From assembly GCF_044324875.1 (NCBI RefSeq), contig NZ_CP172193.1: DNA of 1,842 nucleotides. One strand, 5' to 3'. The notes beneath the pieces were generated by a model. The model was not told the DNA's origin. It searched no databases and worked only from the letters and a program-made list of their open reading frames with translations. This document shows, one piece after another, positions 114-919 of the stretch. Each line of letters opens with the position of its first letter. Positions within the stretch are counted from its first letter, which is position 1. The stretch is from Escherichia coli (GTDB lineage: Bacteria; Pseudomonadota; Gammaproteobacteria; Enterobacterales; Enterobacteriaceae). Both the position numbers and the translations under genes were made by a program.

Positions 114-638
114 ATGCTGGAACAGCGATTTGAAGACTTTGAACAGCAAAAACGGCGAGATCACAAGGCACAAGATCAAGCCCAAAACACTAAGCAAAAA
201 CGAGATCGGTTGAATCCACCTGACTGGTCACAAGTCACTAAGGCTGGTTGGAATATGTTGGACGCTATATCCGAGAAGGTTCCTAGGGCATTTAGGCTAT
301 ATTCTTTTTTTGCTCAAAATATAGATAAATCGTGTGGAGCTGTTGTATGTGATCAAAAATTCCTAGCTGATTATTTCGGGGTTAGTTTAAGGACAATTCA
401 ATATTGGATCGGAGATTTAGAACGTATTGGTGCAATAGTAAAAATACCAGTAGGTATTTATTATGCTTATGCTTTAGATCCTTATCAGGTATGGCGTGGA
501 TATAATAAATCTAAAAAATATGCAGCATTTAACGCAAAAACATTAACTCAAAAAGATGGTGTTATTGATCGTAAGTTGCGGCTCATGCTCTCTAGAAGAG
601 AAGATTTTGAAAGCTCACTCAAGCCCTCTAAATCATGA
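114..638 (+). CDS. Winged-helix (HTH_36/RepL-like) DNA-binding protein; candidate plasmid replication initiator or replication-associated regulator (~175 aa)
   Basis: Six-frame ORF 15..638. Start reassigned to ATG 114 because AAGGA at 102-106 sits 7 nt upstream, whereas ATG 15 has no Shine-Dalgarno and its first 33 codons overlap the palindrome array and encode an atypical Cys/Arg/Val-rich peptide. Stop TGA 636-638. Motif FLADYFGVSLRTIQYWIGDLERIGAI (nt ~360-437) fits the recognition-helix pattern of HTH_36-type winged helices found in small-plasmid Rep proteins. N-terminus is a charged low-complexity stretch (EQRFEDFEQQKRRDHKAQDQAQ). AT-rich codon usage. Family assignment is from recall, not a search. 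Confidence 0.65.
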   Translation: MLEQRFEDFEQQKRRDHKAQDQAQNTKQKRDRLNPPDWSQVTKAGWNMLDAISEKVPRAFRLYSFFAQNIDKSCGAVVCDQKFLADYFGVSLRTIQYWIGDLERIGAIVKIPVGIYYAYALDPYQVWRGYNKSKKYAAFNAKTLTQKDGVIDRKLRLMLSRREDFESSLKPSKS

Positions 639-656
639 CTAGTCTTGGAGGTCTAG

Positions 657-875
657 ATGAATACTGAAGATAAGCTAATGCTAAAAGTTGATCGATTACT
701 TAGTCATGATGCGTTAAATCAACGCAATATTTTAAATAATTGGGAAAGACAATTTTTAACAAGTGTTTTAGCTATCTATAGGAGGATCAATAAATATTCT
801 TTAGTTGGGCTATCACCAAAACAGAAAAATGCAACGTATAACATTTTAAAAAAATATAAATTTCATACTGATTAA
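657..875 (+). CDS. Hypothetical small basic protein (72 aa), co-transcribed with ORF1
   Basis: Strong RBS GGAGG at 647-651 with 5-nt spacer to ATG 657; stop TAA 873-875. Only 18 nt separate it from the ORF1 stop, same strand and same AT-rich composition. No Cys or His, Lys/Asn-rich, no recognisable catalytic motif. The tail FLTSVLAIY...LSPKQKNATYNILKKYK loosely resembles, from memory only, C-terminal segments of some plasmid Rep proteins. Confidence 0.55.
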   Translation: MNTEDKLMLKVDRLLSHDALNQRNILNNWERQFLTSVLAIYRRINKYSLVGLSPKQKNATYNILKKYKFHTD

Positions 876-919
876 AAGTGAAATATTTTAAAGAGCCAGC
901 GGCAGGGGGACAATCGGAT

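Follow-up and report, generated by a model that had tools for sequence, protein, structure and literature searches.

A small basic protein encoded behind repL in a Col(MG828) plasmid resembles the C-terminal tail of pSC101 RepA

Replication initiators of the RepL family (PF05732), known from the P1 lytic replicon and from small Firmicute plasmids, are treated in the described replicons as single-protein systems. Accessory parts of initiators are a known kind, and the Rop/Rom and Cop-type copy-number proteins are examples of small helical plasmid products that replication can do without. RepA of pSC101, which ranks among the replication proteins most widely used in E. coli genetics and in synthetic biology, contacts DnaA via its N-terminal part and also contacts DnaB (reviewed in PMC4980987). 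The published structural and mutational work that we found on this protein stops at its two winged-helix domains (e.g. PMC5785507, PMC4980987), and the papers that we found on RepA mutants do not mention the C-terminus. A literature search that lacked some early papers on the RepA domains returned no functional data on the RepA tail or on the protein family described here.

The stretch of DNA that we analysed (the window, 1842 bases) is a complete small plasmid typed Col(MG828), and a circular E. coli plasmid of 1843 bp (NZ_CP070127.1) matches it end to end at 99%. Its AT-rich half (1–890, 35% GC) contains two genes, both on the plus strand. The features of this half are as follows.

1–110, no strand assigned: repeat-rich region upstream of repL, with TACGAAA/TTTCGTA direct and inverted repeats (families D1, D2 and I1–I5)
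114–638, plus strand: ORF1, a RepL-family replication initiator of 174 aa by Pfam and PGAP names, the same protein as WP_045145680.1
647–651, plus strand: GGAGG, the ribosome-binding site for ORF2, 5 nt upstream of its start codon, as read from the sequence
648–876, plus strand: exchangeable ORF2 cassette (ribosome-binding site and ORF2), delimited by comparison with locus L020 and by the slot replacement in pMG828-1
657–875, plus strand: ORF2, encoding a 72-aa protein of pI 10.0 that is identical to WP_141071555.1 (annotated as “hypothetical protein”)
663–716, plus strand: predicted helix 1 of ORF2 (residues 3–20), with the conserved N-terminal E4..L7 motif (x-E-E/D-K-L)
738–788, plus strand: predicted helix 2 (residues 28–44), opening with the signature W29-E30-x-x-F33-L34
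810–854, plus strand: L-S-P-K-Q-K cap (residues 52–57) and predicted helix 3 (residues 54–66), with conserved K55, Q56, I63 and L64

ORF1 is a member of the RepL family. It matches the Pfam RepL profile with an E-value of 2e-4, it bears the PGAP name “replication/maintenance protein RepL” in records that are 97–99% identical in DNA, and the RepL proteins of pMG828-type plasmids are 93–96% identical to it. The possibility that ORF1 is a Rep_3 protein that has lost its tail was thereby ruled out. ORF1 ends with TGA at 636–638, and a gap of 18 nt (639–656) separates it from the ATG of ORF2, which ends with TAA at 873–875. These coordinates agree exactly with the position, ribosome-binding site and spacing given by a first-pass annotation of the window. 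ORF2 and the RepL gene probably share one transcript, with ORF2 translated directly after RepL.

Upstream of repL, copies of the TACGAAA/TTTCGTA repeat lie at 2–9, 50–57, 51–65, 72–86 and 82–95, and a perfect 18-bp palindrome occupies 27–44. By its position and repeat content, the region 1–110 probably comprises candidate RepL operator or binding sites, part of the origin, or both. No Rfam family matched the window or any of three related plasmids, no antisense-RNA replicon was detected, and a scan for promoters and terminators found nothing above chance.

ORF2 is a real gene. A run of 72 stop-free codons has a probability of 0.0025 at the base composition of the AT-rich half, homologs share 41–71% identity with ORF2, and pairwise dN/dS values against homologs range from 0.06 to 0.43. 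WP_141071555.1 is annotated in two of three near-identical plasmid records, and this ORF2 cassette is carried by 3 of 5,426 complete E. coli genomes. The protein is rich in Leu (11), Asn (8) and Lys (8), with five Arg, in agreement with its earlier description as basic and Lys/Asn-rich. Its C-terminal segment L-S-P-K-Q-K-N-A-T-Y-N-I-L-K-K-Y also reads as first quoted, whereas the spacing in the preceding motif is F33-L34-x6-Y41, not x7. The AlphaFold2 (AF2) model of ORF2 consists of three helices (residues 3–20, 28–44 and 54–66) with a pLDDT of 87.

We compared ORF2 with pSC101 RepA (316 aa, translated from NC_002056.1; WP_010891056.1), whose tail comprises residues ~251–316. BLASTP aligns residues 17–67 of ORF2 with residues 265–313 of RepA at 33% identity (E = 5e-5). 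An HMM of the ORF2 family matches the last ~65 residues of three pSC101-type RepAs with 16–19 bits, namely those of pSC101, p64-A and a K. aerogenes plasmid (the latter two being ~70% identical to pSC101 RepA and aligned over profile positions 2–67). With a decoy set of 3008 six-frame fragments from 46 sequences (the window and 45 loci), these three proteins were the only matches outside the family (E = 7e-5 to 6e-4), and the next decoy had an E-value of 0.13. An hhalign comparison of the ORF2 profile with a profile of 11 RepA tails gave a probability of 94.8% and an E-value of 5e-8 over 65 columns; the score was 41.2, whereas none of 200 column shuffles scored above 18.0 and the reversed alignment reached 13.0. 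As a negative control, a 142-aa gene that follows a tail-less Rep_3 gene in Proteus (L037) was considered as a detached tail and found to be unrelated (E = 0.45).

The region of RepA that aligns with ORF2 lies outside both of its annotated domains: Pfam assigns WH1 to residues 6–149 and WH2 to residues 166–221, and nothing to residues 222–316. In the AF2 model of RepA, a linker (residues 226–250) is disordered, with pLDDT below 50, and is followed by three helices (254–268, 276–292 and 300–312; pLDDT 77–89). In the predicted structures, the second and third helices of ORF2 agree with those of the RepA tail in both length and register, with F277 of RepA equivalent to W29 of ORF2 and T299 to S53. 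The signature that opens helix 2 of ORF2 matches F277-E-A-K-F-L of RepA, and the L-S-P-K-Q-K cap together with helix 3 matches L-T-Q-K-Q-R...N-I-L-A-K-Y (RepA 298–313). Positions shared by the two are L7, L26, W/F29, E30, F33, L34, S/T53, K55, Q56, I63 and L64.

Among RepAs, conservation of the tail (0.65–0.83) resembles that of the winged-helix domains, and conservation of the linker is 0.28–0.36. All of the ~190 pSC101-type Reps that we found among the plasmids of the collection have the tail. For more distant Rep_3 relatives, the alignment covers residues ~1–230 only, and two of them (L036 and L037) end right after WH2. Searching 5.8 billion proteins with the RepA tail returned near-identical fragments only; tblastn of the tail against plasmids recovered the pSC101 lineage and no further initiator family with the domain; and the family libraries gave the tail only one faint hint, phrog_7521 (E = 0.027). 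Many large plasmids of IncF size hold orphan fragments that encode only a pSC101-type RepA tail, ~89% identical; those listed overlap or abut IS26. These fragments are remnants of captured pSC101-like replicons.

We conclude with high confidence that ORF2 is homologous to the tail of pSC101 RepA, a likeness that the first-pass annotation had suggested and that BLASTP, HMM, hhalign and the AF2 helices now bear out. Taken together, the profile similarity, the predicted helices, and the conservation and distribution of the tail show that the last ~65 residues of RepA form a separate folded domain that was added in one Rep_3 lineage, and that ORF2 is its free-standing homolog. The resemblance extends over the whole domain, with three helices of matching length and a pI of about 10 on both sides. 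The differences are that the RepA tail is fused behind WH1–WH2 by the disordered linker of ~25 residues, whereas ORF2 is a separate 72-aa protein; that the partner initiator of ORF2 is a RepL, which belongs to another Pfam family; and that sequence identity is only 23–33%. ORF2 is not covalently attached to the WH1–WH2 unit of a Rep_3 protein, and it is thus a homolog of the domain and not a RepA.

ORF2 also defines a small protein family that is absent from Pfam, NCBIfam and PHROGs. A HMMER scan of 1.84 billion representatives identified 11 clusters of the family (50% identity representatives), and a profile search of 5.8 billion proteins identified 35. All consist of proteins of 60–87 aa, without a Pfam domain and in no case part of a longer fusion. 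The positions conserved in the family are E4, L7, L26, W29, E30, F33, L34, R42, S53, K55, Q56, K57, I63 and L64, and the pI is 9.6–10.2 in all members and in the RepA tail. Searches of Pfam, NCBIfam and PHROGs with ORF2 gave no significant family (the one faint hint being RsgA, E = 0.13) and detected no helix-turn-helix (HTH), ribbon-helix-helix (RHH) or other DNA-binding family. Pfam gave no hit even at E≤10, including Rep_3 WH1/WH2, ParB/ParG/ParR and Rop/Cop-type families, and a profile search of PDB sequences with the ORF2 family likewise found nothing at E≤10. The predicted fold is a generic three-helix bundle, and its structural neighbours were uninformative. One family member is named “DNA-binding protein” in UniProt, a label that is probably automatic.

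Two members of the family (L031 4001–4210 and L033 5001–5210; HMM E ~1e-15) adjoin a DNA methylase gene and have no RepL gene nearby. Their contigs are 7.5 kb and 203 kb long, the 7.5-kb one also carrying PIF1-helicase and ribonucleotide-reductase genes, and may be phage or megaplasmid. An ORF2-like sequence of the pKP13a-plasmid type lies at the very end (172340–172555) of the 174-kb Klebsiella phage KP13MC5-1 (OP617746.1). The host of this phage, K. pneumoniae KP13, shares its name with the source of pKP13a, and the sequence is therefore probably plasmid DNA joined in assembly.

In many small gammaproteobacterial plasmids, a RepL gene is followed by an ORF2-like gene; ORF2 itself has no similarity to RepL. 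In about ten lineages (the window, L004–6, L011, L016–19, L020–23, L024–26, L027–29, L034, L035 and Aeromonas L041), a statement that covers every small-plasmid lineage examined, the ORF2-like gene is directly downstream of a RepL-family gene encoding 141–205 aa, on the same strand, and either follows it after 0–19 nt or overlaps it. One of the lineages with this arrangement is the pKP13a family, with about 60 records. The upstream proteins are only 14–23% identical to ORF1; Pfam identifies RepL in three of nine of these partners at E≤1e-3 and in five of nine at E≤0.1, and the rest were assigned by transitive BLAST. With similarity to a Rep C-terminus found and with co-occurrence conserved across lineages, the core idea of the first-pass annotation stands.

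Plasmids of ~4 kb from Salmonella and E. coli (L013 and L015) carry an intact ORF2-like gene behind a RepL gene of which only the last 13 codons (ELPPPDQADLELN*) are left, the two joined by a TAATG overlap, at the following positions.

L013 400–465: RepL remnant and start of the ORF2-like gene
L015 175–240: RepL remnant and start of the ORF2-like gene

Judged from the remnant, this apparent exception fits the pattern of RepL linkage after all. Plasmids of this type also contain a DnaJ-domain gene and a ParE toxin gene, the latter beside an 89-aa gene that is a possible antitoxin. In one subgroup of RepL proteins, the C-terminus ends in P-P-P-D-Q-x-D-L-E/D-L-N/T just before the start of the ORF2-like gene, and this conserved tail may serve as a short linear motif that a partner protein recognises. 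Such tails were located at three places.

L011 ~920–967: P-P-P-D-Q-x-D-L-E/D-L-N/T tail
L024 ~3110–3155: P-P-P-D-Q-x-D-L-E/D-L-N/T tail
L013 420–463: P-P-P-D-Q-x-D-L-E/D-L-N/T tail

On the other side of the ORF2-like gene, a DUF4160/DUF2442 gene pair follows directly in three loci (L027 991–1465, L034 1706–2180 and L041 932–1406). In Arsenophonus plasmids, an ORF2 homolog closes an operon that is opened by a gene for “replication initiator protein A”, another type of initiator. The domain is thus fused to one initiator family and encoded beside two others, which provides a Rosetta-stone argument for a shared role.

The position behind repL is a variable slot. Most Col(MG828) plasmids have an unrelated 95-aa gene (WP_049092722.1, WP_023909281.1) in the place of ORF2. 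The replacement lies between conserved flanks in pMG828-1 and in no fewer than 36 further plasmids of this type, which are circular and complete and have RepLs 93–96% identical to ORF1. It was located in three of the loci compared.

L002 152–439: 95-aa gene
L009 1408–1695: 95-aa gene
L010 1070–1357: 95-aa gene

The 95-aa gene shares with ORF2 its position, strand, close spacing after repL, small size and possession of Arsenophonus homologs (~39% identical, in conjugative plasmids of Arsenophonus nasoniae). It differs from ORF2 in that the two have no sequence similarity and in that its product has an acidic middle and a Lys-rich tail; the ORF2-family HMM finds no match in L002, L009 or L010. 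The complete RepL plasmids L040, L042, L043 and L044 contain no ORF2-like gene, and neither does the fetched part of L045, even though its RepL and the one of pKP13a share 74% identity; these five fit the single-protein view of RepL replicons. The slot after rep genes holds ORF2, the 95-aa gene, a MerR-like gene or nothing, and represents a site of module exchange in tiny plasmids. From this distribution, ORF2 is dispensable for RepL replication.

Comparisons between lineages show that the cassette moves. The window and L020 are similar (82%) only at 648–876 and along a 76-bp stretch at 1369–1444; their RepLs belong to different subgroups and have no BLAST similarity, whereas their ORF2 proteins are 71% identical. 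The cassette 648–876 was exchanged between RepLs that lack mutual BLAST similarity. The converse is seen between L027 (301–1000) and L035 (2001–2679), where the RepL proteins are identical, with 12 synonymous differences in 477 nt, whereas the ORF2 alleles are only 70% identical and dS is saturated; this contrast indicates that recombination broke the sequence where the two genes meet. Overall, the phylogeny of ORF2 does not follow that of RepL, which speaks against a close protein-protein fit between ORF2 and its initiator. Since ORF2 swaps freely among RepLs that are ~15% identical, an interface tailored to RepL is unlikely, and a target that all these plasmids share, for instance a host factor or a nucleic acid, is the likelier binding partner of ORF2.

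We favor, with moderate confidence, the interpretation that ORF2, a basic three-helix protein, serves plasmid replication initiators as a portable accessory module that is not essential. Under this model, the module would be attached in cis through a flexible tether in the pSC101 lineage and supplied in trans, from the same operon, in RepL plasmids of Gammaproteobacteria. ORF2 would most likely act at the origin alongside the initiator, binding a target that does not depend on the initiator, be it a host replication factor or a nucleic acid, and such binding could improve initiation or its control. Both the cooperation of ORF2 with an initiator and the nature of its target are inferred, and naming any specific binding partner would be speculative at best. 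The high pI and the conserved patch of E30, R42 and S53-x-K55-Q56-K57 suit DNA, RNA or an acidic protein surface. Family members without an intact RepL, namely those of L013/L015 and of the methylase-adjoining phage-like contigs, count against the accessory module.

Because the first-pass annotation had read ORF1 and ORF2 as a split or two-component initiator, we asked how well obligate halves, both of them required, would account for the same data. In pSC101 the domain belongs to the polypeptide chain of an initiator, and the two genes are closely spaced here and often overlap in other lineages. Against this stand the RepLs 93–96% identical to ORF1 that are paired with the unrelated 95-aa gene in complete circular plasmids, the RepL 74% identical to that of pKP13a with no ORF2-like gene downstream, the identical RepLs paired with ORF2 alleles only 70% identical, and the identity of ORF1 as a RepL and not a truncated Rep_3. 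With RepL found beside another gene or without a partner, and with the cassette swapped, the split-initiator proposal was not borne out, and we consider it very unlikely. The partition adaptor (a centromere-binding protein) that had been offered as an alternative is more improbable still: ORF2 is small, basic and plasmid-encoded, but the 1.8-kb plasmid has no ParA/ParM-type gene, the AF2 model has no ribbon-helix-helix strand, and no ParB/ParG/ParR family is hit in Pfam even at E≤10, so that this proposal found no direct support.

Two other explanations are unlikely to a lesser degree. ORF2 could be an independent cargo gene, with a role in establishment, anti-defence or another process, that belongs to a pool of small accessory plasmid genes and happens to reside in a variable slot, the pSC101 fusion being a frozen accident of stop-codon loss with no role in replication. 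The varying contents of the slot are consistent with this, as are the exact recombination of the cassette at gene borders, the homologs that ORF2 and the 95-aa gene each have in large conjugative plasmids of Arsenophonus, and the family members found beside a DNA methylase gene in large phage-like contigs and next to a truncated RepL. However, every pSC101-type Rep found retains the tail, which is conserved like the DNA-binding domains while the linker drifts, the tight and often overlapping linkage to RepL is seen again and again in about ten lineages with RepLs as little as ~15% identical, and a third initiator family precedes the ORF2 homolog in Arsenophonus; a cargo gene is thus rather unlikely in our view. 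We give slightly less credence to a regulatory role of ORF2, directed at the rep operon or at copy number, in which a small basic DNA-binding protein or co-repressor would tune RepL and the pSC101 tail would serve in RepA autorepression or handcuffing. Such a role agrees with the pI of about 10 in all members, with the shared operon, with the probably automatic UniProt label, and with the conserved S/T-x-K-Q helix cap, a kind of cap that often touches the DNA backbone. Yet none of the databases searched detects a DNA-binding family in ORF2, no promoter or operator evidence rises above chance, and exchange among unrelated RepLs with different upstream repeats is hard to square with sequence-specific operator binding. 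A copy-number regulator had also been among the earlier suggestions and gained no direct support; the predicted three-helix bundle differs from the helical hairpin or RHH fold of Rop/Rom and Cop-type proteins, and neither Pfam nor Rfam gave a match.

Within the accessory-module interpretation, a more specific version can be proposed tentatively. The domain shared by ORF2 and the RepA tail might be a portable recruitment module for a host component of replisome loading (e.g., DnaB/DnaC, primase or a chaperone) or for single-stranded origin DNA, one that can be plugged in cis or in trans onto unrelated initiators (Rep_3, RepL and RPA-type RepA). We regard this as possible but doubtful. If true, no interchangeable “adaptor subunit” would have been described for plasmid initiators before this one, and it would explain the unexplored last 65 residues of pSC101 RepA. 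What is new here is the occurrence of one domain in fused and free forms and the exchange of the free form as a cassette. The circulation of the RepA tail as a separate small gene offers a simple handle on the role of the domain, since ORF2 can be deleted, swapped or supplied in trans, and a domain that recruits a host factor or tunes copy number could be used in replicon engineering.

The other half of the window differs from the replicon in composition. Positions 891–1740 are GC-rich (57% GC versus 35% elsewhere in the window) and are common, at 90–99% identity, to more than 2,500 plasmid records, most of which are typed mobilizable. The segment 1683–1735 (AGTATACACTCCGCTATCGCTACGTGACTGGGTCAGGGCTGCGCCCCGACACCC) is almost identical to what we take to be the bom/oriT region of ColE1/pBR322, which makes the plasmid a combination of a RepL replicon with a mobilisation site of ColE1 type that lacks a gene for a relaxase. 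A further Col(MG828)-type plasmid of 1822 bp (NZ_CP090002.1), which is 91.5% identical to the window across 79% of its length, was deposited as Staphylococcus aureus, a label that is likely due to contamination or a labelling error.
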